64,000 bases of DNA from Raillietiella orientalis (lineage: Eukaryota), in assembly GCA_036172245.1 (NCBI GenBank), contig JAYWIR010000074.1, forward strand, positions 310,001 through 374,000. Direction: 5' to 3'. The notes under the pieces are model-generated. The model saw only the letters and a program-made list of their open reading frames with translations, was not told the origin of the DNA and made no database searches. Positions 7,922 to 40,199 of this stretch are shown in pieces (position 1 is the first letter of the stretch; each line of letters begins with the position of its first letter). The translations under genes and the position numbers were made by a program.

Positions 7922-10021
7922 TTGCCACCCGAGTACGCCCAGGGCGTTTATTGACACCCTACAAAAACGTGGAAGGAGGCCCTACTAACGGCCGCACAAC
8001 AACGGACCTGCCGAGACGCCGGGACGCAGCCCGGCGTGACGCTCCTCGGCAGTGGAGGGAAGTTTGGGAGAAAACAAAAAAAAATGAAATAAAGAAAAAC
8101 AAAAGGAGTTTGGAGGGAGGGAAAGGGATCACTATCCACTAGGAGAACGACCCCTTCTCCAGAGGATGCCCTCTAGGTCCTTCTGCCTTTGTTTCAGATG
8201 GGGCCATCTCGCAGCTCTTCGCATGAAGCTCACAGCTTTCGGGATGAATTCCCACTCGTTAACATCCACTTCTTCGTCGCAAATGTCGCTCCAGGCCGTT
8301 TCGATGCCCCGGATGCAGCAGAGATCTGCGAGGGCTACGGAGGGCTGCAGGGCGTTCCGCACGAAGAGGGGCCCAAAAACGTCTCTGGGCGCGCTGCCCA
8401 TTGGGTGCCCGAGGGTCCTGCCGAACTGTTCCCACAGGGGTCGGACAGCAGCAAAGTCGACTAGAAGTTGGGGGAGCGATTCCCGCTCTCCACACCTGGC
8501 ACACTCAGGGCTTACACTTCCTCGCGTTCAGTGGAAGCGGCGCGCGTTGCAGGGTAAACTTCAGTGCAACAGCAGCAGTGCGGACTCTTGCCACTTTAGC
8601 GGGAGAAGCCTGGATCCGATTAATACTGGGGGCCACTTGAGGTCATCCGTTGGGATGCCAAGCAGCTTGTTCTATCTAACAATTCCATGCGAAAGGGCAC
8701 TCGGGGTCGTGGCATCTGCCAGTTCGTTTATGTTCCAACCGCTCAGTTTCTTTTTCCCTGCCTGCGATCCGGCAGGAGACGTGCCACTTCGGCGTGCGGC
8801 CGCTGATTAGAGCCCTTCGTAGGTAGGGCAGCGTGAAAGCCAAAGGGGTGTTCTCTGCCCACGTGCTCCTGGCGGGACACTCCAGAGTGGTCCGTAGGGT
8901 GCAGCAGGCGTTGGAGCCGAGTCGCAGGCGGTTCCAGACACGTTAGTCTGGAGGTTTAGCCTGGCCCACGTCCCAACGGATTCCACAAGCCAAGCGGAGG
9001 AGTTGGCGAAGCTACATACCGTCCAACCGTTCTCTCACCAGGGATTCCATGCGCCTAAGGAGAAGGCTGCATCTCCTAACCTTCCGACCGGGGCACAGAA
9101 GGAAAGAAGCGAGTCCTAGCGTCCTCGATACACGGCTGTCGAGAATGCGAACCGGGACGTACCAGAGGGTGTTCCACGTCTTTGCTGCGATGGCTAGGGT
9201 GTGCCATCGCAGCTGTATGTCCATGCGCTCCAACGTCAGGAGGCCAAGACCACCGTCCCGACAAGGAGCGCATGTGTCCTTAAGAGGTGCACGAGGCCTC
9301 TTACTGCATCAGAGGGTGATGCGGAGAAGGGCTTCAGTCCTCTTCTTCAGGTCACGGAGGATGGAGCACACAAAAAGCAGGAGGCGGAAGATGGGAGCCG
9401 GGAACTCGTTACACACCGCGGCCCGTTCCGGCAGAAGGAACTTGCCTTCCAGGAACAGACCGATGGCAAACTCTACCTTTTGGAGACGACCTGACCAGGC
9501 ATCTGCGAGGCAGAATTCCCCCAACGGGACACCCAGGTATTTCAGGTACCTGACCGTGGAGATTCTCATGCGGATGCAGTCAGGCCGTCCATGCCACGTC
9601 GCAACGAACGGTACCACCGACGACTTCGCCTTGTTAACCTGCAATCCAGTCCCACGGCTCAGCAGATCCAAGAAATTCTCGACTGCGACTGCCGAGGCGG
9701 ACATGGGCAACATCAGCAGAAGATCGTCGGCGTACGCAGCTACTACAGGCGTGCCTGGGCACGAGCTAGGCAAGGCAGCCAAAGACACCCTTTACGCTCT
9801 CAGCACCATCTCAAGGTAGGTGCTGAAGAGCAGGGGAATCAGACTCTCGCCCTGCCGTATGCCCCGCGCCACCGGAAGGCCGTACGTTTTCCGCTGAAAG
9901 AGACCTTGATTAACGCATTCCGCCAGCAAGAGCGGAGGTAGGAGAAAAGAGAGGGTGGGAAGCCCATGAGACCCAGAAGCTCCTACAGTAGCTCCTTGTC
10001 CACGCAGTCGAACGCCTTCCG
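7922..10021 (-). mobile_element. E4: 3' part of element (3' UTR, C-terminal domain, RT up to KAFD), interrupted by E5
   Basis: 3' terminal motif at 7922-7952; ORF 9309..9788 with YADD and KYLG; ends at RKAFDCVDKELL. Confidence 0.85.
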
Positions 10022-12724: not shown

Positions 12725-15700
12725 TTATCACCCGGCTACGCCCGGGGCGTTTATTTGTAAGCTCTACATGCGTGGTACGGAACCTTACCACGGCCGTAAG
12801 CACAGGACCTGTCGGGACACCAAGACGAAGCCCGGCGTGGCACTCCCCGACAGCAAAGGGGGATGGGGATAAGACAAAAAGAAAAAGAAAAAAGAAACAA
12901 ACAAAAAGAAGTTCATGGGCAGGGAAGGCATAACTGTTAGCTGTGGGGAGGGCCCATCCGTCAAACGAAGCCCTCGAGGTCTGTGTGCACATTCCCCAGT
13001 TGGGGCCATCCAACAGCTCTCCGCAAGAAGCGTTGGGCACACGGGATGACATCCCTCGCCTGTGGACCCACTCCTTGGCTGTTGGCGTCGCTTCATGCCG
13101 CCACGATGCCACGGAGGCAGCACGAGGCTGCGATGGCTGCGGCTGGCTGCAGTGCTTCCTCCACGGAAAGGGGCCGAAGAACGTCTCTAAGCGTGCTGCC
13201 CCTAGGGAGCCCAAGGGTCGTCCCGAACCGCTACCAAAGAAGTCGGAGGGCAGCACAATCCACAATAAGGTGGGGGAGCGACTCCCGCTCCCCGCACCTG
13301 GCACACGCAGGATCCACAGCTCCTCTCGTCCAGTGGAAGCGGCGCGCGTTGCAGGGTAGACCCCACTGTAACAGAAGCGACGTTGACTTTTGCCACTAGA
13401 GGGGCATAATGCTGGATTCTTTCATCACCGGGGGCCACTTCAGCTCATCCATGGGAATGGCGAGCAGCTCGCCCCATCTTGCTAATCCTCGCGGCTGGAC
13501 GCTCGGGGCCGTGACGACGGCCAGTTCTCCAGCTGTCCTGCCGCTAATCAACTTCTCGCGTCCCTCGATGCAGCAGGAGACTTGCCACCTTGGCGTCCGG
13601 CTGCTGTGAAGTGCCCTCCTCAGAAAGCGCAGCGCCGTAGCTAGGCAGGTCGTCTCTGCCCACGTGCATCTTGATGGACTCTCCAAGAGATTCCGCAGCG
13701 TGCAGCGGGCGTAGGGGCTGCATCGGAGACGATTCCACGTATCGTGGCTTCTCTGGTTGACTACTGCCCACGTTCCAATATTCTCCTCCAGCCAGGCGGG
13801 GGAGTTGGCGGGGCAGCAAACCATCCAGCTGTTCTCCTTGGCCAATGTTGCCATGCGCCCGAGCAGTAGGCCGCATCTTCGCATCTTCCGGCCACGGCTC
13901 AGAAGAAAAGACGCGAGTCCATCGCACCGCGACACACGGCTGGCCAGGAGGCGGGCCGGAGTGCACCAAGGGGTGCTCCACATCTTCGCTGCGATGGCGA
14001 GGGTTCGCCACCGCAGCTGCTTCTCCACGCGCTCCAGCGTCAGGAGGCCAAGACCGCCGTCCCGACGCGGAGCGCACAAGTCCTTCAGTGGGACTCGGGC
14101 CTCCCCTTGCCCCAAAGGGCGATATGGAGGAGGACCTTTGTCCTCTTTTTCGATTCCATGGTTATGGGGGCAAACAAAAAGAAAAAGGCGTAGGATGGGA
14201 GTGGCGAAGGCGTTTTAAACCCTGGTCCGTTCCGGCAAGAGAAACTTGCCTTCTAGGAACGGGCCGATCGCCGTCTCGACTTTTTGGAGGCAGCTGGACC
14301 ACGCATCCTTAGGGGAGCACTCCCCCAACGGCACAACAAGGTACTTGAAGCACCTCGCCGTGAGGATCTTCAGACGGACCCAGTCCTACTTCCCTGCCAA
14401 CGCCGCACCTATTGGCACAACCGACGACTTCGCCCTGTTTACCTGGAGTCCGGTCCGGCGGCTGAGCAGATCGAAGAAGTCTCCGACCGCCTTTGCCGGG
14501 GTGGACATTGGCAACAAGAGCAGAAGATAGTCGGCGCACTCTGCTGCGGCGGGCGTGCCGGGGCATGAGCTCGGCAAGGGTGCCAAAGTCACCCAGTACG
14601 CTCTGAGCACCAACTCAAAGTAGGTGCTTCAGAGCAGGGTGATGAGGCTATCTCCCTGCCTTATGCCCCGCCGCACCGGCACGCCATACAAGTTGTTACC
14701 ACTGAAAGAGACGGTAATCATCTCATTCCGCCAGCAAGAGCGCAGGTAGGAAATCAGGGAGGTTGGGAAGCCCATGCGACAGAGGAGCTCGAAGAGGAGT
14801 TCCATGTCTACACAGTCGAACGCCTTTTGGAGATCGATTGCGAGCGCTAGGGCCCCCTTCCCTGCACAGGGTTCACTTTTTAGCTTGGCTGGCGGCCCCA
14901 ATGGGGGTTGCCGACTTTCCCTATCCCTTCCTTCTCTTTTCTCTGCAGGAGCACCCATGTGCTTGCGAAAAAGTGGTTGGCATCCATACTTTGCCCGGGA
15001 ACAGCATAAGTCTGCTCCGGGCAAATCACGGATTCTGCCACCTGCCCCAGACGCGAAGCCCATAGCCCTGCTATCAACTTGGAATTTGTATTCACGATCG
15101 TGATCGGACGCCAGTTCTTTAACTAATTGAGGTCTCCATGTTTCGGAAGGAGTCTCACTCTGGCTGACCGAAACAAGGCGGGAACATCGTCTTCGTCTCG
15201 GATCAGCCTGATCAACATAAGCAGCAGGGGTGCCAGCTTTTCCGCGAAGCTCTCAAAGAACTTCGCGGGCAAGCCGTCTTCCCCTGGAGCTTTACGCCTC
15301 TTGAGCCTTTTGATACCGGCTAAAATTTCGCCGGTGATAAAAGGCTCGTCGAGGCTTTCCATCTCCTTCTCCCCTATTGCCGGGGCGCCATCCGAAAGCA
15401 AGCGCCGAGAGGCGTTTCGATCCGGGGTTCCCTGGCGTAGTGGGAGGAATAAAAACTCTGCACGACATGCCGTACCGACGTAGGGGACCAACATTCACGG
15501 CTATGGTCGTCCAGCAACCTGGCCGACCCGGATTGCCAGGATTGGCGTTTGGCCCAGGCGCGGTACTCGGCCAGGCGACGCACATTTAGGGTTCTCTCGT
15601 ACCTTTGAGCCTGTTAATAGGCCCGATGGTTGCGAGGACCCTCGCCGAATGCGGGTGGCATGCGGTCCAGGGGCAACTGTTAGCACAACTCCCGGACCGA

Positions 15701-18368
15701 GGCCTTGAGAAGGTCCCATTCCTAGAGATTCTGTCGCGTGACGCCTCTCAGGAATTCGCGAAGGTGTTCCTTCGCACCTGAGAGTCGCGTCCAGTCCCCC
15801 GGCAGACGCCAATCTCTGGATGGCGGTCCCTTTTCGCGAGGCCGCATCTCGAAATTTAACCGGGAATGGTCCGACAACTTCGACGCAACCCTTCCTCGTT
15901 TGCTGACTTGTGAACACAGTTCAGCGTCGAAGAAGACGTGGTCGATGCTGCGAACCATTCCCCTCTCACCTGCGAACAAGTTGCGCGCACGCATGGCGGC
16001 CCACAACTCGTTCATCGCGTTCTCTTGTGTTTCTGGCTCACCTGTTAGCAGACATAGATTGAAATCTCCCGCTATCAGATGAGCCTTCCGCACGTCCGTG
16101 TCCGCCAGCCAGTCGCGCTTCAGGGATTCCAGCAGCCTGGTACGGTCGCTGTATCCCTGTTTACCGCTTGGAGCGTACACATTCGTGACTATCAGTTCGA
16201 TCGAGTCGGACCAGCTGAGAATCTGCTGACCGACCCGACCGTCGTCATCGAAGCGCACGCCCTTCACGGCAGCGTCGATGGCCGGCTTCACGAAGAACGC
16301 GACCCCGCAGATGTTGCGGAGGCCGCACCGCCAATACAACCGGCCCCCCGCGATCGTCTCGATCTCCTGGGCGTCTGCCGCGGTGATACCTTGGATCTCC
16401 TGCAGCAGGGCCAGGTCGAGCTCACGCAGGGTGTCGGCCGTATCTCGCCTGTTACCGTCGTCGCGCAGCCCGTTGACGTTCCAACAGGCGGCGCGAATCC
16501 GACGGCGACTGGCGAGCCCAGGTGTTACTCCTGGGAAGATGGCGATGCGGCGTCCGCCACCTGTTAAGGCGGGACGCTAGGTGGAGGAAAAGGGTCAGGC
16601 GCTGCTTGCACCTGGTCCCCCTCCTCCATGGGTAACGGCGCCTCGAGCGGTTCACCCTCTGGTGGGGTCGCGTTTACCTGTTCGCCCTCCTCCATGGGGG
16701 CGGGCTGTTCAGGCTCGGCGACTGCAGGTAGGACTTTGCCCCCCTGCTCACTCTTCTCCATGGGGGTGGACGGCTCGACGGCTCCCGAGCGTGGGAGTTC
16801 CCCCTCCAGGTTTCCCACGCTGCCACTGACTTCCTGTTTCTCCTCCTCAATGGTGGAGGAGAGGCGCCTTCTGCGTTTCTGGGACTTGCGAACCGACTTC
16901 CAGGAGTTGCCTCCGAGGAGGAGGATGTGCTTTCGGCCCCCAGGTCCAACTCACCTGTGGGGACCTTTTTCGCGGGAGCCGGCCTCCGCACGTCCTTCCG
17001 TGAAGGGTTCTCACGCTCCGCCAGCGTGGCCGAGAGCTCCTCCGTCGCCTTTGAGAATGTAATGTCCTCGGTGTCGACCAGCGCGTCGCGCGGCTTACCC
17101 TCTGCTTGCACAGAAGGTTTGCCGTCGCGATCTTCGGGCGCGACGGAAACGGCGAGGGGAGGCTCGTCGACGCGGGTGGCATCTTCAGGAACGACGATAC
17201 GTTCCAATGCCACCGTGCACTCGCGTTAGGTTCTCGAACGCGGCACGAGTTTTTTCGTTTTACCGGTCGACTTCTCTTTCTTCTCCTTTAAAGGAGCTTT
17301 TTTTTCTTTTCTGGCTGCTACAAGTTGCCAGCCCTCTTTTCCTTCCTACTATTGGGAAGGTTTATCTTCCGTCTTTTCTTTTGGAGGTTGAGGATCTGGC
17401 AGCTTCAGCAGGCCAGCGTCCGCCTTAGGTCTTGTGACCTTTACTGCGCGTTTCCCCTGCGCCTTCTTCGCGGCAGGAGAAACCGGGGTGGGGAGTTTTG
17501 GGCACACACCTTGAACATGGCCCTTCTCCCCGCACATGTGGCTTTGGATGTTAGGACACCTCTTGCGAATGTGTCCTACGGTATCGCAGTAGCCGCAATA
17601 CCGGGGCTTTCCCACGTACCAGAGGTCCACGCTCTCTTGCGCGACCTCCAGCTTGTGGGGAAGCCCACAGTCCTTACTCACGGTTACCCGCGCTGCAGCC
17701 TCGCCTCCGAAATGGCTATTGAAGCCTCCAAAGATTGTTGGCTTAGGCCACAGCGCGTGCACCTCGCCGAACTTCCGTAGTTCTTGTGCTACCGCAGAGC
17801 GAGTCATACGGCTTGTTATTCCAGTGAGATGGACCACCACGGAGCGGTCAATCGTCACCGGCAAGATCTTGCGGCCGTCGACGTTCAACGGGTTGGTGAT
17901 CAGAGTCTGAGCCAAGGTCATCTCCTTGCACACCACCTCGACTCGCTGACCTCCGCTGAGAACGGACAAACCGTCAAGATCTTGTTCTCTTACTCCGGCG
18001 GTTTGCAGCGCTTTCGAAAACGCGCGTGCCGTTTTTCCGTCAAATAAGATGCCTACCTGGTACACCAAGCTGGGCTTGTACTAAGCTGCCCGGTAGGCTG
18101 CCATCTCGGCCACGGTTTCCGCGCTCGGCGCGGCCACCATGGCGCTCCAGCTCCTCGCCTTGGGCGGCGAGTGCGATTCCGGGGCGGACGCCCTTGATTC
18201 TGTAGGCTGTGGGGGTGGGCAAGCCTCCCCCACACCTACCTCCATCGTGGTGTTCTCAGGCATCGCTGCTATCGGACACCAACGATGTTCCACACGAACA
18301 CACACAAAAAAAAAACCGATTCCTCCCGACTCACTTTGGAGCGAAGGAAAAACACGTCCACTCGCCAA
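12725..18368 (-). mobile_element. E6: full-length (about 5.6 kb) degenerate RGFG-targeting element
   Basis: Both termini visible; ORF1 about 18263-16525 (ORF 17349..18068 with CCHC), ORF2 about 16525-12930 with multiple lesions; flanked by GAGCTTCGGCG (12714-12724) and GGGCTTCGGCG (18369-18379). Confidence 0.9.
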
Positions 18369-18379
18369 GGGCTTCGGCG

Positions 18380-21300
18380 TTGTCACCGGGGTACGCCCGG
18401 GGCGTCTATTTGTGAACTCTACATGCGTGGTACGGGGCCCCAACACGACCGTAAACACGCGAACTGTCGGGACACCGGGACGCAGCCCGGCGTGGCACTC
18501 CCCGACAGCGAAGGAAGATGGGGATAAGACAAAAAGAAAAAAAACAGGAAACAAACAAAAAGAAGTTGGAGGGCAGTGAAGGGATCACTGGTCGCTGTGG
18601 GGAGGGCCCATTCGTCGAACGAAGGCCTCGAGGTCAGTCTGCATATTCCCCAGTTGGGGCCATCCGGCAGCTCTTCACAAGAAGCGTTGGGCATATGGGA
18701 TGACATCCCTCGCGTGTTGACCCACTCCTTCCTTGTTGGTGTCGCTCCATGCCTTCACGATGCCTCGGACGCAGCACAAGGCTGCAAGGGCTGCGGCTGG
18801 CTGCAGGGCGTCCTTCACGAAGAGGGGCCGAAGAACGTCTCTAGGGGAACTGCCCGTTGGGAGACCGAGGATCGTCCCAAACCGTTCCCAAAGAAGACGA
18901 AGGGCAGCACAGTCCACAATAAGGTGGGAGAGCGATTCCCGCTCTCCGCACCTGACACACGCAGGATCCACAACTCCCCTCGTCCAGTGGAAGCGGCGTG
19001 CGTTGCAGAGTAGACCCCAGTGCAACAAAAGCAACGCCGACTCTTGCCACTTGAGGGGCAGGATCCTGGATTCTTTCATCACCGGGGGCCACTTCAGCTC
19101 ATCCCTAGGGATGGCGAGCAGCTCGCCCCATCTTAACGATCGTCGCGGCTGGACGCTCGGGGTCGTGGCGTCGGCCAGTTCTCCTGTTGTTCAGCCGCTG
19201 ATCAACTTCTCGCGTTTCTCGATGCAGCAGGAGACTTGCCACCTTGGCGTCCGGCTGCTGTGAAGTGCCCTCTTCAGGAAGGGCAGCGACGTAGCTACGC
19301 AGGTCGTCTCTGACCACGTGCATCTTGCTGGAATCTCCAGGAGATTCCGCAGAATGCAGCGGGCGTAGGGGCTGCAGCGGAGACGATTCCACGTCTCGTG
19401 GCTTCTCTGGTGAATCACTGCCCACGTTCCAATATTCTCCTCCAGCCAGGCGCGGGAGTTGGCGGCGCAGCAAACCATCCAGCTGTTCTCCTTGGCCAAT
19501 ATTGCCATGCGCCCGAGTCGTAGGCCGCATATTCGCATCTTCCGGCCACGGCTCAGAAGAAAAGACGCGAGTTCATCGCACCGGGACACACGGCTGGCTA
19601 GGAGGCAAGCCGGAGTGCACCAAGGGGTGCTCCACATCTTCGCTGCGATGGCAAGGGTTCGCCACCGCAGGTGCTTCTCCACTCGCTCCAGCGTCAGGAG
19701 GCCAAGACCGCCGTCCCGACGCGGAGCTCACAAGTCCTTCAGTGGGACTCGGGGCCTCCGCTTGACCCAAAGGGCGATACGGAGGAGGTCCTCCGTCCTC
19801 TTTTTGGATTCCACGGTGGGAGGGGCAAACAAAAAGCAAGGGGCGGAGGATGGGGGCCGCGAAGGCGTTCCAAACCGCTGCCCGTTCCGGCAAGCGAAAC
19901 TTGCCTTCCAGGAACGGGCCGATCGCCGTCTCGACTTTTTAAAGGCAGCTGGACCACGCTTCCGCAGGGGAGTAGTCCCCCAACGGCACACCAAGGTACT
20001 TGAGGCACCTCGCCGTGAGGATCCCCAGACGGACCCAGTCCTGCTGCCCTGCCAACGCCGCACCTATTGGCACAACCGACGCCTCCGCCCTGTTAACCTG
20101 CAGTCCGGTCCCGCGGCTGTGCAGATCGAAAAAGTCTCCGACCGCCTTTGCCTGGGTGGACATTGGCAACAAGAGCAGAAGATCGTCGGCGTACGCTGCA
20201 ACGGCGGGTGTGCCGGGGCACGAGCTCGGCAATGGGGCCAGAGACACCGTGTACGCTCTCAGCACCAACCAAAGTAGGTGCTGAAGAGCAGGGGACTGAG
20301 GCTATCTCCCTGCCTTATGCTCCGCCGCACCGGCACGCCATGCACCTTGTTACCGCTGAAAGAGACGGTAATTATCGCATTCCGCCAGCAAGAGCGCAGG
20401 TAGCAAATCAGGGAGGGTGGAAAGCCCATGCGATCCAGGAGATCCAAGAGGAGTTCCTCGCCCACACTGTCGACTGCCTTGTGCGCTCCAGGGTGGACGT
20501 GTTTTCTCGGTGCTCCGCGTGCCAGGAACTCTCCCCCAGTGCAAGCGACGTGTAATTCGGTGGTCGATCAGGCAGCGATGCCTGACGCGTCCACCAGGGA
20601 TGGCCAGGGTGCAGCGGCAACGCCGCCCTCAGAGACGATGGAGACCCAGGGGGCGGCGGCAACGTAATCCCCCAGAGGAGATGGAGGTGGGGGCATCCGC
20701 CCCCACAGAATCGGTCCCCGCTGCAGCGCGGGCGTGGATCGCCGTTGTGTCGGCGCCATCGCCTGCAGCCGCGGCGGAATTGTCGGCCTATGTAGAGAAG
20801 TACAACCCCTCATTGTTCTACAAGGTAGGCAATCTATATTCTTTAGAGAGCGCAACCGCCTTCTCGAAGGGCATGCGCGCTCTCGATGTGAAAGAGGAGG
20901 TGCTCAACGCTATGACCATCCGCAGCGGGGGTCACTACGTTGAGGTCATCTGCAAACATGCAGAGCTGGTCCAACGACTGCTTCAAACTTCCGTGGTCAT
21001 GGGGACGCGCTGGCTCTTCCCTATTGAGGCGGACCGCAGCATGGTGGTCCACCTGTTAGGTGTTACCGCGCGGATGCGCTAGAAACAGGTTCGTGCCGCG
21101 TTAGAAGAATACGAAATGGTCCACGCGCAGTGAACGAAAGTCAGTCCCTCCGAGGACTAAACGGGGCTGCAACACGGCCTTACTGCTGCGCGCGTGACCG
21201 TTCGGGAGGGGTGCACTCTTTCCCACAAACTGGTGGTCGAAGGCGAAACAGTCGACCTCTGGTATGTTGGGAAGCCGAAATACTGTGGCTTCTGCAATAC

Positions 21301-24300
21301 GTCGGGCCACCTCAAAAAGAGGTGTCTCAACGTGCAGTGCCAAGTATGCGGCACAATGAACCACACGAGGGAGGTGTGCCCAAGAGCAGCAGTGCGGGTG
21401 GTTTCCAAGAGAAACCTTAAAAAACGCGCCCGGCTTCTGCAGAAATGGCTGGCGGCGAAAGCTGCCGCGAAGGCTGTGCCACCCGCGCCCAAGACCCAGG
21501 CCGCACCCGAGACCCCGGCGACCAACGCCGAAAAAGTTGAGAAAGCCATTCAGGAGACTGGGTTGCAAGTGGCAACGGACTAAAAATCAAAGAAGGAGAG
21601 GAGGATGGAAAAGAAAATCGCCCACCAACAGAAGCAGAAAGAGCAGGGTAGCGCGACTATAGAAGAGTGCAGCGTCGTTGTGGAACGCGTTCTCGATGTT
21701 GCCGAACACTGCCGGAAAGAAGTCACCGCTTGCGACGTCCTCCCCTTTTTTGACACAGTCAACAGCGAGGGGAGCGAGCCGGCGGCGGCGTCCGCCATCG
21801 ACACCGCCATCGATGACGTGGCCTCGCTGCGAGCCGCGGAGGAACTGGCAGCCTCGTTGCAGCCAGAACCTTCCAAGGCTGGCAAGAAGGCCTTAAGGCG
21901 CCCGTCCTCCCCTCAGGAGTCCCCCACTTCCGACCCCGAGGTGGAGGCAGGAAGCGCAGCCTCCGTTTCCACGGCACCGCGCAAGAAGGCTGGACGTTAG
22001 TCCACAAAGCCAAGGAATCTCGTCTCCCCCGTCGAAGGGGAAGAGATGGCTTCCGCAAGCGAGGGCGCCATGAGCGTGGGAAACCCTCGGGACCCATCGC
22101 CCGAGAGACTCTTACGCGCGGACATGGAGGGGATGGAGGGGGTGGAGGCCGTTCAGGTGCCTCAGGTGCCTGAGAAGGCTGAAACCCCCATGGACATCCC
22201 GCATGCCTCGCAAGAGTAGGACTCCCCACACCTTAATCTTCCCAGCAGTAATGCCGGCAATCTCCTCCTGCCGTCGTCTGCGCATCGCCGTTTGGAACGT
22301 GAACGGCTTGACAGACGCCGGCAGGAGACAAGACATGGCCGCCCTTCTGGAGTCCTACGACCTTGCGCTGCTGCAGGAGATCCACGTGATCTCTGCAGAA
22401 CAAGCGCAAGAGATCGAACGGATCTCCGAGGTCGGCTATGGTACAGGTGTAGGAGAGCGAAAAGTTGCGGAGTCGCCTACCTGCTTCGGCCAGCCGTCGA
22501 GGCCGCGGCTCGGGGCGTGCGGTTCGACGAGCACGGTCGTTTCGGCCAGCTGACTCTCAGGTGGTCCGACTCGACCGATCTGATCGTCACGAACGTGTAA
22601 GCACCGAGCGGCAAGGTTTTAATGAACAGTAGGGCGAGGAAAGAGTTTTTCCTTGCCGTCCGGCGAGACTGGCTGACCGATGCAGGCGTGCGGAATGCCC
22701 ATCTAGCTGCAGGCGATTTCAACGTTCGCCTGTAACCAGATGGGCAGAATCCCGAGCGTGACCTGGTCAACGAGGTGTGCATGGTGGTGCACACCTGTAA
22801 TTTGTTGACCAGTGCACCGGGGATGGAAGACAGCATTGACCACGTTTTTCTTGACGAGCACCTGTGCCCTCGCGTGGGCAGGCGCGGCAAGTTACCGTGT
22901 GAGCTGTACGACCATCGCCCGCTAGTCCTCGAGATCCATCCGCGCGACAGGGGCCCCCCCTCGTCAGCGTGGCGTCCCCCAGGGGACTGGTTGAAGCTCC
23001 CGGACGCGGCGGAACATCTCCGCACGTTCATACGGAGCTTCAGGCTGCGAACATTTCAGGATTGGGACCGCTTCAAGCGGTCGGTCCAGGAGTCCTGCGA
23101 CCAGTTCCCTCTGTACCGCCTGCCTACGGGTTTTGGGACCGGGGTCCATAACGAACGAGCCTACCTGCAGGCCCGTCGTAACGCCAGGACCCCCGACGTC
23201 CGCAGGCTAACGGAATACAAAGCGGGAGCCGAGAGGCAAGCCTGCCAGTCCGGTTCTTCCAGCTTACTGGACGATCAGCGCCAGTAGCACTCGGCACCTG
23301 CCCAAATCCGCGGCCTGCTGCGTAGTTAGTACTCCTCCCTGTATGCCAGGGCACCTCCGCAGAGGAACGTCTCACGACTCTTGCTTCCGGAAGGCGCTTT
23401 AGCGATCGGGGAGGAGCCAAGAAAGACCCTCGACGAGCCTTACACGATGGACGAGATGCTCTCGGCCATCGGAAAGCTCAAGACGCGAAAGGCTCCAGGG
23501 GAGAAAGGCCTGCCCGCGGAGTTTTATCAAACTTTCGCGGCTGAGGTTACCCCCCTGGTACAGCAACTCACCTTGCTAATACGCGAAAAAGGTAACGTTC
23601 CCGCGTCGTTTCGTTCGGCAAAGGTGCGGCTCCTCCCTAAGGGAGGAGACCTGAGGAGCATGAACAACTGGCGTCCCATCACAATAGTGAATGGGGACGC
23701 TAAGCTGATAGCTAAGGTTTCGGCAGAGCGGTTGAGAAAAGTCGCCAACATCTGGATGAGCCAGGAACAGACATATGCTGATCCCGGGCGAAGCATGGAG
23801 GCGAACCTGTTCCACGCATCCACCTGGCTAGAGCTCCAACATGAAAGGAGCTTGGTACGCAGCCGGAATTCCGGTGCGTGCGCCGGCAAGAAGTTGGATG
23901 GTCGGGTGAGGGAGGGAGCCCTTGCAGTCGCAATCGACTTGCGAAAAGCATTCAATTGCGTCGACCAGAATCTCCTTCTAGAGCTTCTGGAACGCTTGGG
24001 CTTCCCGGCCTCATTAGTGGCCTATCTGCGCTCCTGCTGGCGCGACGCGCTCATCAATGTTACTTTTAGCGGGCAGACCGTGCGCCTCGTGCCGGTGCGG
24101 CGTGGGATCCCGCAGGGAGACAGCCTGAGGCACTTGCTCTTCAGTACCTACTATGAGTTGGTACTGAGAACGTACAGGGGAACTCCTGCGCACCTGCCGC
24201 ACGACTGTGCCGGTACGCCGGCCGTTTCAGCATACGTGGACGACCCTCTGCTGCTGCGCCCTATGTCCACCCCGGCTGCGGCGGTCGAGGAGTTCATCGA

Positions 24301-27300
24301 CCTGCTGCATCGGGGAACCGGGCTTTCGGTGAACAGGGCGAAGTCGTCGGTGATGCCAGTTGGCGCGGCGTGGCCAGGGCAGCAGGACTGGGTCCGTTTG
24401 GGGATCCCTATGGTGAGGTACTTCAAGTACCTTGGTGTGCCGTTGGGGGACTACTCCCCTGCGGAAGCGTGGTCCGGCTGCCTCCTAAAAGTAGAGACGG
24501 CTATCGGCCCGTTCCGAGGCGGCAGGTTATTCCTGCCTGAACAGGCCGCGGTTTGGAACACGTTCGCGGCTCCTCTCCTCCGCTCCGTGCTTTTTGTTTG
24601 CCCCCCCACAGTGAGGATCAAAAAGCGGACGAAGGACCTCCTCCGTGTCGCCCTTTGGGGCAACGGGAGGGCCCGAGTCCGCTTAAAGGACTTGTGCGCT
24701 CCTCGTCGGGATGGTGGTCTGGGCCTCCTGACGCTGGAGCGGCTGGAGCTTCAGCTCCAGTTCTGCTTGTCGGCACTCGTTCCAGAGTTGTGGTGCACCT
24801 GTTGGTGCGTCCCTGCACGTCTCCTACTCCAGCAAGCCACCGGCAAGACCGGACTGACGTCGTTTCTTGCACTCCGTCGCCGCGTGAACCGATGCGGACA
24901 CTACCTAGGGAGGGTGGCTGCGCTGTATCGAAAAAACCCAGGATTGCTCACCTGTCGCCCGTTGAACGGTAGTGCCTGGTTGCAGGAAACCGTTCGAACG
25001 TGGGGAGAGTTCGGCATGCAACGCTCCCAACAGGAACGAAGGTTCCTGTTTGGGGGTTACAGAAGTTGCACGGTTTGCGAGATCCCAGAGGATCCAAAGA
25101 AGAGAGCGTGGGCAGGAAGAACCCCCCTCGCTGCTGCGCTGCCCTTCCTGATGGAAGATCTGGACAGCGATGTTGCGGCGAAGTGGGTGGTCACAGTAAC
25201 AATCTCCGGAAAGAAGAAGATAGGAGAGTGGAAGCCGGGCCAGTTAACAGACGCAGCGACCCCTAGTACGCCTCCCAATGGACTTCTGCGCTGGGGCGCG
25301 CTGCTCGATGTTCCCATTGAACATCTGAAGTGGTCCCCGGTGCTCATGAACACTTCCGCCCTGCTTTAAAATGGCAGGAGTCGGCTCTCCTGTTGCAGCA
25401 CTGGGGACTCCCCTGCAACTCCCGCCGACACCACTGGACCTGGGGAGCGGTGGACCCCAATTGCGTCAGGTTTGGGGAACGGGATTCCCTCCACCACCTG
25501 CTAGTGGATTGTGTTGCCCTTCGGCCCCTTTGGTTCCCCTTTGTTGCGGCCACTGGAATCCCCTGCGGCAACCCCAGGGACGCACTGAAAGCCCTCTTCG
25601 TTGCCGACGCCCTCCGGCCAGCGGCCTCGTTAGCAGCTTTGTGCTGCCTACGCGGGATCGTCACCGCTTGGAGAAAGGCTACGAGAGGACAACGCGACCA
25701 GAGTGCCATCCAGCAAGCCTCGCAGTTCCTGAGGAGGGCGTCCCGATGGCCCCACCTGGATCCAGGAATACAGAAGGAGCTCCGGCATCCTGCAAAGGAT
25801 GGAACGGCCCCACCAGCAACTGTGATCCCTTCCCTTACCCTCCCACTTTTCTTTTCTTTTTTGTTTTGTTATTTGTTTTCCCCCCTTCACTCTGCTGCCG
25901 TGGTGGACCGTAGCGGTCTGCAAACCGGTGACCCGGCAGGCTCTGTTTCTTCGTGCGTGGCTGGAGCAATGGGCCAGCCACCGCACGTCTTTGTAAAAGT
26001 TTATTTTTCAATAAACGCCCCGGCGAAATCCGGTTGAAAATCGAACGCCTTGTGGAGATGGACTGCGAGCGCTAGGATCCCCTTCGCCGCCCGGGGTTCC
26101 CTTCCCAGCTTGGCTGGCGGTTCCAATGTGGGGTTGCCGACTTTCCCTATCCCTTTCTTTTCTCTTCTCTGCAGGTGCACCCATGTGCTTGCGAAGAAGA
26201 GGTTGCAATTAATACTTCGCCCGGGAACAGCATAAGTCTGCTCCGGGCTAATTACGGATTCTGCCACCTGCCCCAGACGCGAAGTTCATAGCTTTGCCAT
26301 TAACTTGGCGTCCGTATTCACGATCGTGATCGGACGCCAGTTCTTTAAATCCCTGAGGTCTCCATGTTTCGGAAGGAGCCTCACTCTGGCTGACCGAAAC
26401 GAGGCGGGAACATCGCCTTCGTCTAGGATCAGCCTGATCAACTTAAGCAGCAGGGGTGCCAGCTCTTCCGCGAAGCTCTGAAAGAACTCCGCGGGCAAGC
26501 CTCCTTCCACTTAAGCTTTACGTTTCTTGAGCCTTTTGATACCAACTAAAATTCCGCCGGTGGTAAAAGGCTCGACGAGGCTTGCCATCTCCTTCTCCCC
26601 TATTGCCAGGGCACCATCCGAAAGCAAGCGCCGAGAGGCGTTACGATCCGGGGGCTCCCTGGCGTAGAGGGAGGAATAAAAACTCCGCACGAGATGCCGT
26701 ACCGACGCCGGGGACGAACTTTCCCGGCCCTGGTCGTTCAGCAAGCTGGCCGACCCGGATTGCCAGGCTTGGCGTTCGGCCTTGGCGCGGTACTCGGCCA
26801 GGCGACGGACATTAGGGGTTCTCTTGTACCTACGTGCCTGTGAATAAACTTGATGATTGCGAGCACCCTTGCCGAATCCGGGGGGCAGGCGATCCAGGGG
26901 GAACTGCTCACAGAACTCGCGGACCGATTCCTTAAAAAGGTCCCAGTCCTGGAGATTACGGAGCGTGACGCTTCTCAGGTATTCGCGAAGGTGCTCCTTC
27001 GCACCTGAGAGTCGCGTATCGTTTCCCGGCAGACGCCAGTCCCTGGATGGCGGTCCTTTGTCGCGAGGCCGCATCTCGAAAATTAACCGGGAATGGTCCG
27101 ACAACATCGACGCAACCCTCCTTTGCTTGCCGACCCGTGAACACAGGTCAGCGTCGAGGAGGACGTGGTCGATGCTGCGAACCATTCCCCTCTCACCTGC
27201 GAACAAGTTGAGCGCACGCATGGCGGCCCACAACTAATTCATCGCGTTCTCTTGTGTTTCTGGCTCACCTGTTAGCAGACATAGATTGAAATCTCCCGCT

Positions 27301-29603
27301 ATCAGATGAGCCTTCCGCACGTCCGTGTCCGCCAGCCAGTCGCGCTTCAGGGATTCCAGCAGCCTGGTACGGTCGCTGTATCCCTGTTTACCGCTTGGAG
27401 CGTACACATTCGTGACTATCAGTTCGATCGAGTCGGACCAGCTGAGAATCTGCTGACCGACCCGACCGTCGTCATCGAAGCGCACGCCCTTCACGGCAGC
27501 GTCGATGGCCGGCTTCACGAAGAACGCGACCCCGCAGATGTTGCGGAGGCCGCACCGCCAATACAACCGGCCCCCCGTGATCGTCTCGATCTCTTGGGCG
27601 TCTGCCGCGGTGATACCGTGGATCTCCTGCAGCAGGGCCAGGTCGAGCTCACGCAGGGTGTCGGCCGTATCTCGCCTGTTACCGTCGTCGAACAGCCCGT
27701 TTACGTTCCAAAAGGCGGCGCGAATCCGACGGCGACTGGCGAGCCCAGGTGTTACTCCTGGGAAGATGGCGATGCGGCGTCCGCCACCTGTTGGGGCGAG
27801 ACGCTAGGTGGAGGAGGACAATCAGGCGTTGCGTGCACCTGGTCCCCCTCTTCCATCGGTAACGGCGCGTCGAGCGGGTCACCCTCAGGTGGGGTCGCAC
27901 CTACCTGTTGGCCCTCCTCCATGGGGGCGGGCTGTTCAGGCTCGGCGACTGCAGGGAGGACTTCGCCCCCCTGCTGACCCTCCTCCATGGGGGTGACCGG
28001 CTTGACGGCTTCCGAGCGTGGGAGTTACCCTTCCGGGATTCCCACGCTACGGGTAGCTTCCTTCTTCTCCTCCTCGCTGGTGGAGGGGAGGCGCCTCCTG
28101 GGTTTCTGGGAATTGCGTCCCGACTTCCTGGGGGGTGCCTTCGAGGAGGAGGATGCACTTCCGTCTCCCAGGTCCGACTCACCTGTGGGGGCCTTTTTTG
28201 CGGAAGCCGGCTTTCGCACGGCCTTGCTTGAGGGGTTCCCACGCTCCGCCAGCGTGGCCGCGAGTTCCTCCGCCGCCTGAGTGAACGCGGCGTCCTCGGC
28301 TTCGACCGTCGCTATTTCGCGCGACTCACCCTCTATGTAAACAGAGGGTTCGCCGTCGCGAACCTCGGGCGTGGCGCAAACGGCGAGGAAAGGCTCGTCG
28401 CCCAGGGTGGCAATCTCGGGAAAGGCTATGCGCTCCAGTGCTACCGTACACTCCCGCATGGTCTTAGAGCGCGGCCCAGGTTTTTTCGCCTTGCCGGCTG
28501 TCTTTTTTACCGCTTTTGCGGTTTCCGCCGGGGCACCTTGTTCTCCTTCCTGGCCTTGACCAGCTGCGAGCCGTCTTGGACTCCCGAGTCTTCGAAGGGT
28601 TTTTCTTCCAATGCCTGTGTGGGAGGAACAGGGGCTAGCAGCTGCTGCCGGCCAGTATCTCTTTTTGGTCTTCCGACCAGTTTACCGCGTTTTGCCTGTG
28701 CTTTCTTTGCAGCAGGCGGCACCCGAGTGGGGCGTTTAGGGCATACGCGGCGTGAGTGGCCCTTCTCCCCGCATCAGTGGCACACATTGTTCGGGCATTG
28801 CTTGCGCAAGTGTCCTACTGCATTGCAGTAGCCACAAAAGCGGGGTTTCCCCACGTACCAGAGGTCTACGACTTCGCCATTGACCTCTAGTTTGTGGGGA
28901 AGCCCACTCTCGTTCACCGTCACGCGCGCGGCGGCCTGCCCTCCGAAAAGGCTATCGTAGCCATCGAAGATTGTGGCCTTTGGCCAAAGCGCGTGAACAT
29001 CCCCGTGCTTTCTTAACTGATCACCAACCGCAGACCGCGTCATGCGGCTGGTGATCCCTGTCAGATGGACCAGTACGGAGCGGTCCATCGTGACTGGTAG
29101 GATCTTGCGTCCGTCCACGTTCAGCGGGGTGGTAATCAAGCTCTGCGCCAAGGTGATGTCCTTGCAGACAACCTCGACGCGCTAACCCCCGCTGAGCACG
29201 GATAGACCGTCAAGGTCCTGTTCCAACACGTTGGCGTTCTGCAGCGCTTTCGAAAAAGCGCGTGCAGTTCGCCCGTCAAAGAGATTGCCTACCTGGTAAA
29301 CCAAGCTGGGCTTGTACCCAGCTGCCCGGTAGGCCGCCATCTCGGGCATGGTTTCCGCGCTTGGCGCGGCCACCATGGCGCTCCAGCTCCTCGCCTTGAG
29401 CGGCGAGGGCGATTCCGGGGCGGACGCCCCTGATTCTGTAGGGTGTGATGGTGGGCAAGCCTCCCTCACACCTACCTTCATCGTGGTGTCCTCAGGCATC
29501 GCTGCCATCGGACACCAACGATGTTCCACACCAAACAGCACAAGAAAAAACCGCTTCCTTTCGACTCACTCGGGAGCGAAGGAAAAACACGTCCAGTCGC
29601 CTA
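18380..29603 (-). mobile_element. E7: full-length degenerate RGFG-targeting element split by E8 (pieces 18380-20483 and 26041-29603)
   Basis: RT reading continues across the insert (ALAVHLHKAFD / HKAVDSVGEELL); ORF1 29508-27752; EN 27750-27000; tandem with E6 and E9. Confidence 0.88.
20484..26040 (+). mobile_element. E8: full-length (5.56 kb) KAFD-targeting element with 14-bp TSD
   Basis: TSD TCGACTGCCTTGTG (20470-20483) / TCGAACGCCTTGTG (26041-26054); ORF1 20578-22251 and ORF2 22251-25825, both disrupted; RT in ORF 23381..25369. Confidence 0.92.
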
Positions 29604-32224
29604 GGGCTTCGGCGATGTCACCCGGATACGCCGGGACGTTTATTAAAAACATTTCAACGGTCAATACAGAACGTGGTACAAGGCCCCACTGACGGCCACG
29701 GAATGCCGGAACTGCCGTGACACCGGGACGCAGCCCGGTGTGGCTCTCCTCGGCAGTGGAGGGGGATGGGGGAAAAAAGAAAAATAAAAGAAAATAGAAA
29801 AACAAACCACAAAAAAAAAAAAGTTTGGAGGGCCGGGAAGGGATCACAGAAAACTGCTGGGAGCGCCCATCTTCTGCAGGATGCCTTCTAGTTCCATTTT
29901 CAGCTTTCCTAGATGGGGCCATCGGGTACCTCTGCAGGAAGCGCGAAGCATACTCGATGACTTCTCTCACGATGCAGTCTTCATCTTCGGCATCACTCCA
30001 GGCCGCCACGATACCACGAATGCAGCAAAGTGCTGCCAGGGCTGCGGCTGGACTGAGAGCGTCCCGTACGAAGACAAGACTGAAGATACATTCAACATTG
30101 CCGCCATCCGGTATCCGGAGGGCCGTTTTTAGACGATCCCAAAGAATCTGGACGGCAGGGCATTCAACTAAGAGGTGGGGGAGCGACTCCCGCTCCCCAC
30201 ACCTGGCACACGCAGGATTTACTCTTCCCCGCGTCCAGTGGAAGCGGCGCGCGTTGCAGGGTAGACCCCAATGCAGCCAAAGAAGCGCCGATTCTTGCCA
30301 CTTCAGGGGGAGAATCCTGGATCCAAGTAGAACCGGGGGCCACTTCAGGTCATCCAATCGAATGCCGAGCAGCTCGCCCCATCTTCTTAATCCACGCGGC
30401 TGGAGACTAGGGGTCGTTGCATCTGTCAACTCTCCCATGGTCCAGCCGCTCATCATCTTCTCTCTGCCTGCGATACGGCAGCAGACTTGCCACCTTGGCT
30501 TCTGGCTTCCGTAAAGCGCCCTTTGGAGGAAGGGCATCGCCGTAAAAAGGGGTGTGCCTTCCGCCCACGTGCAACTCGGTGGAAATTGAAGAATTTCACG
30601 GAGAGTGCGGCGAGCGTATAAGCCGACTCGCAGGCAGTTCATCCGGTCTTCGCACCTTTGGTTCTGCTTAGCCCAGGTGCCAGCAGTCTCTTCCAGCCAA
30701 GCGAAGGAGTTGGCAGGGCCACAAACCATTTAGTCGTTCTCCTTTGCCAGGGTTGCCATGCGGCCGAGCATTAGACCGCATCTTCGAATCTTCCGGCCAG
30801 GGCACAGAAGAAACGATGCGAGTCCTTCGCAGCGGGACACACGCCTGGCCAGGAGGCGGGCCGGAATGCACCAAGCGGTGCTCCACATCTTCGCTGCGAT
30901 GGCGAGGGTCCCCATGGCAGCTGGATTTCCACGCGCTCCAGCGTCAGGATGCTGAGACCGCCGTCCCGACGCTGAGCGCATAAGTCCTTTAAGCGGACTC
31001 GGGCCCTCCCGTTGCCCCAAAAGCCGATACGGAGGAGGTCCTTCGTCTGCTTTTTGATCCCCTCTGTAAGGGGGCAAACCAAAAGCAGCGAACGAAGGAG
31101 AGGAGTTGCGAACCTGTTCAAAACCGCGGTCCGTTCAGGCAGGAAAAACCTGCCGCCTCGGAACGGACCGATAGCCGTCTCTACTTTTTGAAGGCAGCCG
31201 TACCAGGCGTAAGCTGGGGAGTAGTTTCCCAACGGCACACCGAGGTACTTGAAGTAACTCACCGTGAGGATCCCCAAACGGATTCAGTCCTGCTGCCCTG
31301 CCCACGCCGCACCATCTAGCATCACGGACGACTTCGCCATTTTTACCGTAAGCCCGGTTCATCGATTCAGCATGTCGAAGAACTTCTCGACCGCCGAAGC
31401 CGAAGTGGACATAGAGAGCAGCGGCAGAAAGTCGTGTGCGTACGCTGAAACGGCCGGCGTACCGGCGCATTCATGCGGCAGTTGCGCCACAGTTTCCCTG
31501 TACGCTCTCAGTACCAACTCAAAGTAGGTACTGAAGAGCAAGGGGCTCAGGCTATTTCCCTGCCGAATTCCACGACGCACCGGCACGCCGTGAACAGTAT
31601 GGTCGCTGAAAGTAACAATGATTTGCGAATCGCGCCAGCTAGAGCACAGATAAGCCAATAATGAGGCCGGGAAGCCCAAGCGTACCAAAAGCTCCAGCAG
31701 GAGATTCTGGTCGACGCTGTCGAATGCTTTACGCAAGTCGACATCGACCGCAAGTGCTCCCTCCCCCATCCGAACATCCGTCGCATGACTGACGGACTCA
31801 CCGGAATTCCCGGTGCGCATCAAGCCCCTTTCGTGTTGGAGCTCTAGCCAGGTGGAAGCGAAAATTCTTTCCTAGCCCTCCTGTTCGTCAGGTCCGCTCC
31901 GTTCGGTGCGCAAACGTTCGTGACGATCAGATCGATCGAGTCATACCAACTGAGTGTCAGCTAGCCGACACGACCGTGATCGTCGAACCGCACTCCACGG
32001 GCGGTGGCCTCCATGACGGGTCGAAGCAGGTGGGCAACACCACAACTTCTCGATGTTCCACACCGATACCACAACCGCACTTTGGAGATGCGTTCGATCT
32101 CTTGCGCTCGTACAGTGCAGACGTGTTTCCGTGTCTATCCGCGCCAACGATCGGGCAACTTTGTGCCTGCGGTTTTGCTCGCACTTGTGTGTTTTGTGCA
32201 ATCTGCCAGGTAGCATAGTGCAAC

Positions 32225-34128
32225 ATGGCCAGTACACAAAATAGTGTGGAGGAACAAGCCACTGGATGCACTTCAGCTGCACTTGAAGTGCCCGCATCCT
32301 CCGTAATGGTTTCCTCGCCCCCGGTGAGGAGTTACGCCGCCGTTACCTCCCAAAGACCAGGACCCTGCGATGCGGAGTTCCAGGCATATGTGTCATCAGG
32401 ATACATGCCTGCACTCCGTTATAAGGTCAGTGGGCCACTTAACGGGAGAATCGGTCGTGAGCTCAATGATGAGCTCGTCCGGATAGGCGTTTGCGAGGAG
32501 GAACTCCTTGCCATGATGCCTGCCGGCAGGATGGAATATACGAAGATTCGGTGCAAGAACGCAGCTCTTGTGCAGCGCCTCCTCCGTACGCCGTTGACCA
32601 TCAATGGCAAGGAGGTCCTACCTAGCGCGATGGAAGACTCTTTTGTCGTTCAATTGTGCGACATCGAACCGGAAATCTCCGACCGCGATGTCGTAAGTGT
32701 GCTGGCAAAGTTCGCCACCGTGCACGCTCTGCGGAGGAGGCCAAATCCTCTTAAGGATTTTCCCTCTGTCCACATTGGACAAGCCTCCGCGCGGATAACC
32801 GTCGCGAACAGGCGTGTTGTGCCTGAGCAGTTGCAGGTGAACGGCACGGTCGTTGACCTGTGTTTCATAGGCTAGACTCGCCCGTGCGAGCAGTGCGGCA
32901 ACGAGGGGCACCGAATTAAAGAGTGCCCCTCTCCAAGATGCCGCTATTGCAAAGATTCCGGGCACGAAATCAAAAAGTGCCCGCTACTTGCAAGAAAAAG
33001 AGCCGCAGCGGAAATTCGTCGGGTTCAAGAGACCACTGCACGAAAAGCCGCAGCGGCAAATAAAAAACGTCGTTCGCAAAAACTCGCAAAAAACCACGAG
33101 CGATCCGCGAATGAAAAGAAAGCATCCCCGACCGCAACTCCCCGAAAGGGGAAAGTCACGGCAAGGAAGCCAATTAAAAAGGGGCGCGAGGGTTTGACGC
33201 GTGCCGTGCCTTCCCTCTCTGCCGAACTCGCAGGCACCTTTCCGAGCCTGGAACAAGGGAATCTCCGTAACACCCAGGAGGGAAAGGTAGGAAAACAGGA
33301 AGATCGCAACAGTGCGAAGACTTCTTGCCCCGTTCCGTTGTCCCTTCCGAGTTCCGGACAGCCTTACTGCAGCGCAGGCCCCTCTGCAAAGGCTACGAAA
33401 GCCGTAAAAAGCAGCGTCGCGACGAGCAAAAGCACACTGCATGCAGTCGCCCCATCGCCGACTCGGCAGGAGAGGAGCAATCTCCCGACAGTCAAGAAGG
33501 TGACTCCGTTGCCGTTTTTTAAAGGCGAAGCGAAAGCAACGCCCACAGAGAACGCAGCGAAAATCCCGGAGGTTTCCGCAACTACTGCCGTGGAAGCCTC
33601 CGAAAATCGCGAAGGCGAATGGAAGGTTGTGGAGAGGAGGAAAGAAAAATCTCCAAAAAAAGCTCCGCAACCACCATCCCTGAGCTCTTCCAAAGGAAAG
33701 AGCAGTCGCGTGAATACGAAAACACGCGCGGCTTGTGACTCTTCCAAGGAAAAAGCCAGCGCCTTCAGCGCGTGCAAGTCCGCTTCTATGACCGCCGAGA
33801 AGACCATTCCGGTGCAATCGGACGGATGCAAGCGCACGTCGACCGAGCGAGCATAAGACTCCGCAAAGCAGTCCGATAACGCAGCTGAACGACGCGTAAA
33901 TCGCGCGGGAGCCAGCGCCCGCAGGGCTGAAGCCCTGAGGCGTGACACACTCGCCGCGGAACGGCGAGTGCTCACCCCGGAACCCACAGGTTCTGCACTC
34001 GGGGAGGAGCACCCGATTACGTGCAGCGCAGTAGAGGCCGTTGGAGACCGCGCCCTCCAGCCCGTCGTGCTGCTTACTGCCCGCTCGCCGGGTGAGGCGA
34101 GCACACGACCTCGCTTTCCCAGCCGTGA
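32225..34128 (+). pseudogene. E10 ORF1 (gag-like, two CCHC knuckles), disrupted
   Basis: ORF 32225..32875, then CEQCGNEGHRIKEC and CRYCKDSGHEIKKC after an in-frame stop; low-complexity tail 33194..33856. Confidence 0.8.
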
Positions 34129-40190: not shown

Positions 40191-40199
40191 ACTCGTTGT

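Follow-up and report, generated by a model that had tools for sequence, protein, structure and literature searches.

The stretch analysed here, termed the window, comprises 64,000 nucleotides of contig JAYWIR010000074.1 (positions 310,001 to 374,000 of the forward strand) from the Raillietiella orientalis assembly GCA_036172245.1. It contains E8, a full-length long interspersed nuclear element (LINE) that resides inside a second LINE, E7, at codons for a conserved motif of the host's reverse transcriptase (RT). All counts of sites, junctions and copies given below refer to this one window of 64 kb. Its GC content is 0.55-0.62, and at least one homologous copy is present elsewhere in the window for 88% of its length, the repeated sequence being LINE. 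Stretches that have no second copy include the open reading frame 1 (ORF1) and 5' regions of single-copy subfamilies. The repeat unit is a retrotransposon of the non-LTR type (lacking long terminal repeats) of ~5.6-5.8 kb. The features involved in the E8 insertion are the following.

20484-26040, plus strand: E8, a full-length LINE of the site-2 family (termed F2), 5557 bp, delimited by its termini and the flanking duplication
20470-20483, no strand assigned: TCGACTGCCTTGTG, the left-hand copy of the duplicated 14 bp; its reverse complement reads as host codons H-K-A-V-D (2 nt of the D)
26041-26054, no strand assigned: TCGAACGCCTTGTG, the right-hand copy of the duplicated 14 bp; its reverse complement reads as H-K-A-F-D (2 nt of the D)
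18379-20483, minus strand: host E7, 3' part (KAFD to 3' end), 92% identical to element F1ref in alignment
26041-29604, minus strand: host E7, 5' part (5' end to KAFD), aligned to F1ref and including a 10-bp site-1 duplication at 29595-29604
54634-60414, minus strand: F1ref, a site-1-family element of 5781 bp, inserted in host Z

E8 consists of a 5' untranslated region, a decayed ORF1 region and, at 22236-25890, a stretch homologous to ORF2 in which the frames are broken. Its 3' end is formed by AATAAACG, a CCGG..CCGG inverted repeat and TTGAAAA, without poly(A). The first-pass annotation had described E8 as flanked by two 14-mers at 20470-20483 and 26041-26054. Both are present at exactly those coordinates, and they are identical at 12 of 14 bases. 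The accompanying proposal, that the 14-mers represent a target-site duplication within the codons of the RT motif DLxKAFD, is borne out by alignment. On F1ref, the left flank of E7 covers 5781->3678 and the right flank 3691->1431, which is an overlap of exactly 14 bases. When E8 and one copy of the duplication are excised in silico, the E7 frame is continuous (...LALAVHLHKAFDSVGEELL...). The duplicated bases are the codons x-K-A-F plus 2 nt of the last D in DLxKAFD, which constitutes RT motif A. Conservation of this motif across LINE clades had also been asserted, and DLxKAFD does align to LDFAKAFD of the R2Bm RT (over its AKAFD). We take the first D of DLxKAFD, which is one codon upstream of the 14 duplicated bases, to be the catalytic Asp. 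Because E8 is on the plus strand and E7 on the minus strand, E8 is antisense to its host. A search of the window with the 14-mer pattern, allowing at most two mismatches, produced 4 matches where 0.43 are expected, a number reached by 0 of 100 shuffles. The two matches other than the copies beside E8 are intact homologous sites of other elements (56724-56737 and 61240-61253).

The same 14-nt register had been claimed for three other hosts, at 10008-10021, 40009-40022 and 43603-43616. When 150 bases of each E8 end were compared with the window by BLAST, five strong E8-type termini were detected, namely 5' ends at 10022 (+), 20484 (+) and 40008 (-) and 3' ends at 26040 (+) and 43617 (-). The few remaining matches are short and limited to a motif common to all subfamilies. 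All five strong termini adjoin R/H-K-A-F-D codons in the same register, with the insert antisense to the host, and each of the three additional 14-mers indeed lies next to an E8-like terminus. Read in insert orientation, the 14-mer ahead of the 5' ends is TCGAACGCCTTCCG, TCGACTGCCTTGTG or TCGAAAGCTTTACG, and the 14-mer after the 3' ends is TCGAACGCCTTGTG or TAGAACGCCTTGCG. The signature expected of a site-2 junction is an F2 3' end AATAAACGCCCCGGCGAAATCCGG.. followed by TCGAACGCCTT.., or ..GCCTTNNG ahead of an F2 5' end. The events other than E8 are listed here, as located by BLAST and alignment.

10008-11371, plus strand: second event, 14-mer TCGAACGCCTTCCG at 10008-10021 of host V (7927-10021, minus), then 1350 bp of F2 5' sequence (10022-11371, 85% identical to E8)
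38037-40022, minus strand: third event, F2 5' part 40008->38037 (75% identical to E8) adjoining 14-mer CGTAAAGCTTTCGA at 40009-40022 (R-K-A-F-D)
43603-47470, minus strand: fourth event, 14-mer CGCAAGGCGTTCTA at 43603-43616, then F2 copy F2b with its 3' end at 43617, 88.5% identical to E8

The host of the third event is a plus-strand fragment at 40009-40188, and that of the fourth is a plus-strand F3-like element (~40190-43616) that ends in the 14-mer. Of these half-elements, the one at 40008 spans element coordinates 1-1931 and the one at 43617 spans 1708-5557. Since the two ranges overlap, they derive from different copies, which brings the number of site-2 events to four. Three 5' boundaries and two 3' boundaries are consistent with a 14-bp duplication. 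The 14-base overlap on F1ref, the restored frame and the fact that five of five termini are in register together indicate site-specific insertion. Within the window, F2 integrates at one site only, the KAFD codons of related LINE ORF2s, and always in antisense orientation.

On domain matches and comparison with solved proteins, the window elements are L1-like non-LTR retrotransposons with an endonuclease of the apurinic/apyrimidinic (APE) type. The 1270-aa ORF2 of F1ref matches the Pfam models Exo_endo_phos (9.2e-12) and RVT_1 (3.2e-21), and its translation shows the motifs LQE, GDFN, SDH and YADD. A zf-RVT match on ORF2 is weak and under the Pfam cut-off. The solved structure closest to the whole ORF2 is human L1 ORF2p (2.4e-47, with R2 at 1.5e-14). 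For the stretch from motif A to motif C alone, the score of R2Bm is slightly above that of human L1 ORF2p. Two ORF1s match zf-CCHC (Pfam, 5.7e-06 and 2.9e-05), and weak C2H2-like matches are found in ORF1 beside the CCHC knuckle. A CCHC knuckle in ORF1 is known from plant and algal L1s. The ORF2 frame of F1ref (54674-58486, minus) is open for 1270 codons, measured from stop to stop with the start codon left aside. With this open frame and all catalytic motifs looked for, F1ref could be young or active.

The ends of the elements are also well defined. Canonical 5' ends are reached by E8, E7, F1ref and two elements introduced below, A and C. All 11 of the 3' ends in the window carry AATAAACG, then a short GC-rich inverted repeat (CCGG/CCCGGG), then a tail of 6-10 nt, and none of the 11 has poly(A) or an A-run. 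The tails differ by subfamily, being TTGAAAA for site 2 and T[GT]A[TC]AAC or TG[AG]CATC for site 1. TGTAA occurs upstream of several 3' ends (examples of 3' ends are 25996-26040, 54634-54679 and 63318-63362). A consensus fold of the eleven 3' ends was set aside, since it yields a 4-pair helix that disagrees with the CCGG/CCCGGG inverted repeat recognized by eye, and the alignment is structurally inconsistent.

We consider it highly probable that E8 belongs to an L1-like subfamily, F2 (CCHC knuckle in ORF1, APE endonuclease and RT in ORF2), which is site-specific for the KAFD codons in the ORF2 of its relatives and is one of a guild of LINEs with sequence-specific insertion, for which their endonucleases are presumably responsible. 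By analogy with R1, Tx1L and L1, the F2 endonuclease would nick the host-sense strand at 5'-..AAGGCGTTCGA^C. The freed 3'-OH would then prime reverse transcription from the structured 3' end of the element (..CCGGTTGAAAA). A nick of the other strand, 14 nt off (..CGCCTTGTG^G), would prime the second strand, resulting in a 14-bp duplication and a full-length insert. The site-1 subfamily uses the PGFG codons and, by regenerating its target, also builds arrays, and a third family uses a site past LQEIH. The expected outcome is a self-feeding island that consists of LINEs only, where insertions would harm transposons only and the ORF2 of relatives would serve as a safe target.

The four site-2 junctions could also descend from one ancient KAFD insertion, if the composite then multiplied through duplication (segmental or tandem), through unequal crossing-over or through gene conversion. 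Self-alignments do cross the junctions unbroken (7921-11371 versus 18379-21836, 77.9%; 22191-26531 versus 47470-43129, 85.6%), and recombination occurs in the window, as is evident from a chimera at 29605-31860. Moreover, copied composites with identical duplications are described in centromeres (10.64898/2026.09.17.752431; here and below, statements on published systems reflect excerpts of the papers cited). However, four of four comparisons show clearly greater divergence in the host flanks than in the inserts (79.1 versus 85.7%, 69.1 versus 77.3%, 65.0 versus 77.2% and 68.7 versus 88.7% identity), and the outer neighbours differ. The four hosts also belong to four subfamilies: one is F1-like (74%), one is F1a (92%), one is 85% identical to the copy at 50894-51073, and one has ~47% protein identity to F1ref. 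Because the hosts are more diverged than the inserts and come from four subfamilies, separate insertions are favored over one copied composite, which we regard as very improbable. Judged from these alignments, the four site-2 insertions, including those at the three additional registers, are independent events. Even less credible is targeting at the level of a region, such as centromeric chromatin, that lacks sequence specificity, with the KAFD junction arising by chance or as an assembly artefact. The LINE-only island does resemble the centromere clusters of Zepp and ZeppL (PMC8226300, PMC3446292), and repeats are hard to assemble. Yet for a 5.6-kb element, simple arithmetic gives a chance of ~(1/11,000)^3 that three more random hits would fall on the same base and strand, as four independent events of one orientation require. 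An artefact fits poorly as well, because the junctions join canonical termini to internal host sequence and not homologous stretches to each other, so that collapse would not create them, and because E7 regains its reading frame once the insert is taken out.

A different route to the same specificity is unlikely but carries more weight. The site might be read by a DNA-binding part of ORF1 or ORF2, or by pairing of the target with read-through RNA, coupled to a nick of the displaced sense strand in transcribed hosts. Pairing with RNA would explain the antisense bias of the inserts, and tandem arrays would give read-through RNAs bearing the target sequence; the weak C2H2-like matches in ORF1 fit a DNA-binding reader. 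Precedents are available in the pairing of RNA with target in other target-specific LINEs and in the reading of the target by zinc fingers in R2 (PMC5035012). On the other side, the endonuclease of the window elements is APE-type, not R2-type, and specificity of the endonuclease itself has been shown in APE-type site-specific LINEs (PMC1919474). RNA pairing in particular is disfavored by inspection of the 3' tail and the target by eye, which revealed no clear complementarity.

Several observations count against the reading of F2 as an endonuclease-directed, KAFD-specific subfamily. All of the evidence comes from one 64-kb window, and another domain or RNA-DNA pairing, instead of the endonuclease, may set the site. 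Both junctions are within the window for E8 only, and the length of 14 bp was therefore measured once, with 2 mismatches. Frames are broken in both long F2 copies, E8 and F2b, so that no active F2 source is seen. A metagenome scan in which 119 motif loci were checked yielded no relatives of the window elements. The KAFD target is highly conserved as amino acids but only moderately as DNA. In addition, 10 of the 14 KAFD sites in the window are empty and 4 are occupied, a count from which two spurious regex matches (14180 and 53524) were left out. The empty sites include that of F1ref, although its 14-mer, CACAAGGCGTTCGA, is identical to that of E7, and that of element A, which matches at 13 of 14 bases. 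Empty matching sites could reflect either specificity beyond the 14-mer or rare insertion.

The arrangement of the array contributes two further points of this kind. Read junction by junction and not from one tabulated output, the inserts of the three replicated sites and of the single-event sites run antisense to the host, with one exception. At ~40188/40189, a plus-strand F3-like 5' end lies beside a same-strand host fragment of 180 bp (aa 584-645), which breaks the antisense rule. The second point is the chimera at 29605-31860 (minus). Its 3' 1.4 kb, to ~31000, is 92-100% identical to F1b (Z, 60415-63362), and ~31000-31860 is 81-88% identical to F2. After 31860, the match up to 32121 shifts to F2 coordinates 1909-2166, so that ~1.2 kb of internal sequence is missing. 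These breaks suggest exchange or loss between adjacent copies (by recombination, template switching or deletion), which probably also shaped the array.

AAG-GCG is present at three of the four occupied sites and at two of the ten empty sites (F1ref and A), a difference that is not significant (one-sided hypergeometric ~0.095, hand calculation). The fourth occupied site is AAA-GCT. At their own sites, three F2-like copies have AAA-GCA or AAT-GCA, and the KAFN of E8 changes the base at the inferred nick.

23942-23955, plus strand: E8's own KAFD site, CGAAAAGCATTCAA (R-K-A-F-N), empty, located by homology

It had been suggested that changes at their own KAFD codons might confer self-immunity on members of the site-2 family. 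The F2 copies with AAA-GCA or AAT-GCA at their own site agree with this idea; the single occupied AAA-GCT and the two empty AAG-GCG sites (F1ref and A) do not. We treat self-immunity of F2 copies at their own site as a hint, not a result.

The parallel drawn in the first-pass annotation with homing elements that target conserved sites survives in part at best. The motif is conserved at the amino acid level. As DNA, the 14-mer ranks 684th among 3103 windows of nine ORF2 copies (conservation 0.76 versus a mean of 0.68). Site 1 ranks 2039th of 3103 in the same nine copies, yet it is more heavily used than site 2. Thus, preference for the site of highest conservation is not a general rule, and the logic of homing applies partially at best. 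Homing endonuclease genes and mobile introns, taken as an analogy from general knowledge, are like F2 in occupying a conserved coding site that is hard for the target to change. They differ from F2 in that F2 would use target-primed reverse transcription with duplication, and neither splicing nor allele-to-allele copying, at a DNA site that is moderately conserved.

Site 1 corresponds to ORF2 aa 309-311, the PGFG codons (host-sense GGGTTTCGGC), and is associated with a 10-bp duplication. F1ref lies within the PGFG codons of the plus-strand host Z (~51908-54633 plus 60415-63362), between the duplication copies GCCGTATCCC and GCCGAAACCC. Seven site-1 elements are recognized, from 3' ends at 7927, 12724, 18379, 29605 and 54634 (minus) and 63362 (plus) and from a 5' end at 63373. 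At 18369-18378, 29595-29604 and 63363-63372, a 3' end, a 10-bp spacer (GCCGAAGCCC or GCCGAATCCC) and the next 5' end are contiguous. The length of 10 bp was measured at these three tandem spacers and at the insertion of F1ref in Z. One such pair includes the host of E8.

12724-18378, minus strand: element A (site-1 family) with spacer GCCGAAGCCC (18369-18378), head to tail with E7, from alignment and termini

Because each duplication regenerates site 1, insertion could be repeated, which would lead to head-to-tail arrays. The A/E7 pair looks like a tandem re-insertion at a regenerated site 1, with E7 apparently a member of such a tandem set. Site-2 elements are found inside site-1-type hosts (E8 in E7, and 10022-11371 in 7927-10021). 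Reciprocal insertion of the site-1 and site-2 families, which the first-pass annotation had proposed, is not supported by the junctions: the window has no site-1 element inside a site-2-family host, and the hosts of site-1 elements are F1-like or belong to other subfamilies. Reciprocity is seen only between the site-2 and third families, with C in an F2 copy and F2b in an F3-like host.

32122-38036, plus strand: element C (third family, termed F3), antisense in the F2 copy 38037-40008 / 31861-32121, just past the LQEIH endonuclease motif, from alignment

The duplication made by element C is 15-21 bp. A contig from sequencing run X1, joined to the window as a loose end at 22414, shows the same base occupied in a different F2-like copy, again by the 3' end of a third-family element. 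Other termini represent single events, namely the 3' end of X0 at 3426, the 5' end of W at ~5120, the 3' end of Y at 48918/48919 and an F3-like 5' end at ~47470. Each meets a host in antisense orientation, within ORF2 or the 5' region; the positions are aa ~1069, 496 and 370 and one close to where ORF2 begins. The junctions at ORF2 aa ~370, 496 and 1069, each seen once, suggest further subfamilies.

Nested clusters of self-targeting L1-type elements that mark centromeres are known from green algae, as Zepp in Coccomyxa ('Chlorella' C-169) and ZeppL in Chlamydomonas (PMC8226300, PMC3446292, PMC9940879, PMC11005252, 10.1101/2025.03.28.645958). These elements and those of the window are alike in being L1-type, in having gag-like and RT ORFs, in forming nested clusters that target existing copies, and in residing in GC-rich, LINE-dominated islands (PMC8226300, PMC3446292). 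They differ in several respects. Zepp arrays consist mostly of 3' ends as a result of frequent 5' truncation (PMC8226300), whereas the window inserts are mostly full length. Zepp and L1-1_CR have (A)n tails (PMC3747384, Table 3), whereas the window elements lack poly(A). ZeppL is ~8.3 kb, compared with 5.6-5.8 kb here, a comparison of published descriptions and not of sequences. Finally, the window elements have fixed codon-level targets and fixed duplications, whereas the excerpts cited describe Zepp targeting only as 'targets existing copies'. Five green-algal L1 families are listed without a 3' repeat in Table 3 of PMC3747384.

Fixed targets are familiar from other APE-type elements. The APE endonucleases of R1, TRAS1 and Tx1L are sequence-specific, and that of R1Bm, which uses a 14-bp region, makes specific cuts, first in the bottom strand and then in the top strand (PMC1919474). 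R1, TRAS1 and SART1 resemble F2 in combining an APE endonuclease and an RT with one fixed site and orientation, and the R1Bm target region is likewise 14 bp (PMC1919474). The R1 clade, however, targets 28S ribosomal DNA or telomeric repeats, whereas F2 targets LINE coding sequence, and the ORF2 of F1ref, taken whole, is closest to L1 ORF2p. Transposons are among the known targets of site-specific non-LTR elements (PMC5035012). Tx1L is like F2 in being a target-specific member of the L1 clade whose target is another transposon (PMC1919474, PMC3747384), but that target is the DNA transposon Tx1D, whereas that of F2 is the RT motif of related LINEs. A literature search found no report of a LINE directed at the RT motif, or at any other fixed codons of ORF2, in its relatives, although the primary Zepp reports, which were outside its coverage, may bear on this. 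Site-specific LINEs and LINE-in-LINE nesting are each known; F2 combines a fixed site like that of R1 or Tx1L with LINE-into-LINE insertion like that of Zepp.

A wider reading is that the subfamilies form a guild in which the endonuclease of each has evolved for a different stretch of the ORF2 of relatives (motif A, the PGFG linker and the post-LQE site), with every insertion antisense, and that sequence-directed self-targeting alone builds and maintains centromere-like LINE islands. We put this forward tentatively, as a reading somewhat less likely than not. If it is true, it would supply a sequence-based mechanism for Zepp-type clusters, and would imply an arms race in which the catalytic motif of a LINE is its weak point. 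In the excerpts cited above, self-targeting of the Zepp type is given only as 'targets existing copies' or considered in terms of a possible hotspot at the centromere. The window junctions give rules at the level of bases: three subfamilies have three fixed ORF2 targets with fixed duplications, and insertion is antisense at all three. If these rules apply genome-wide, it becomes testable whether sequence or chromatin directs the clustering of LINEs of this kind, which make up centromeres in several green algae. KAFD specificity, if true, would also add APE endonucleases that are new and whose recognition sites are long and defined. Relatives of a transposon can evidently use its conserved catalytic motif as a landing pad, and F2 insertions help to explain how transposon-only islands build themselves.

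Database searches recovered few relatives. With HMMER over 1.84 billion representatives, the nearest proteins are P0004 (68% identity over 619 aa) and P0010 (72% over 132 aa), and the next is at 36%. A word-indexed protein search gave 3 distant matches among 8000 scored candidates. The ESM Atlas returned generic RT clusters only; a cluster with a Tx1 name, at 0.88, is a weak lead and not evidence of Tx1 membership. The 119 loci from the metagenome scan, which was made with the shared 3'-end motif, were rejected as chance matches, as 0 of 119 matched the window by blastn at 1e-10 and 0 of 119 matched ORF2 by tblastn. A search of sequencing runs found one DNA run, X1, that contains 0.12 of the window words, and no RNA run is among the matches listed. 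The X1 contigs over 18400-28300 are short, and among the matches listed none bridges the E8 junctions.

An Rfam search and a tandem-repeat scan of the window found nothing relevant to insertion. Short tandem repeats with periods of 24/48, 42 and 57 lie at 5376-5539, 39780-39891 and 58931-59107, respectively, each in a different element and within its 5' or ORF1 portion.

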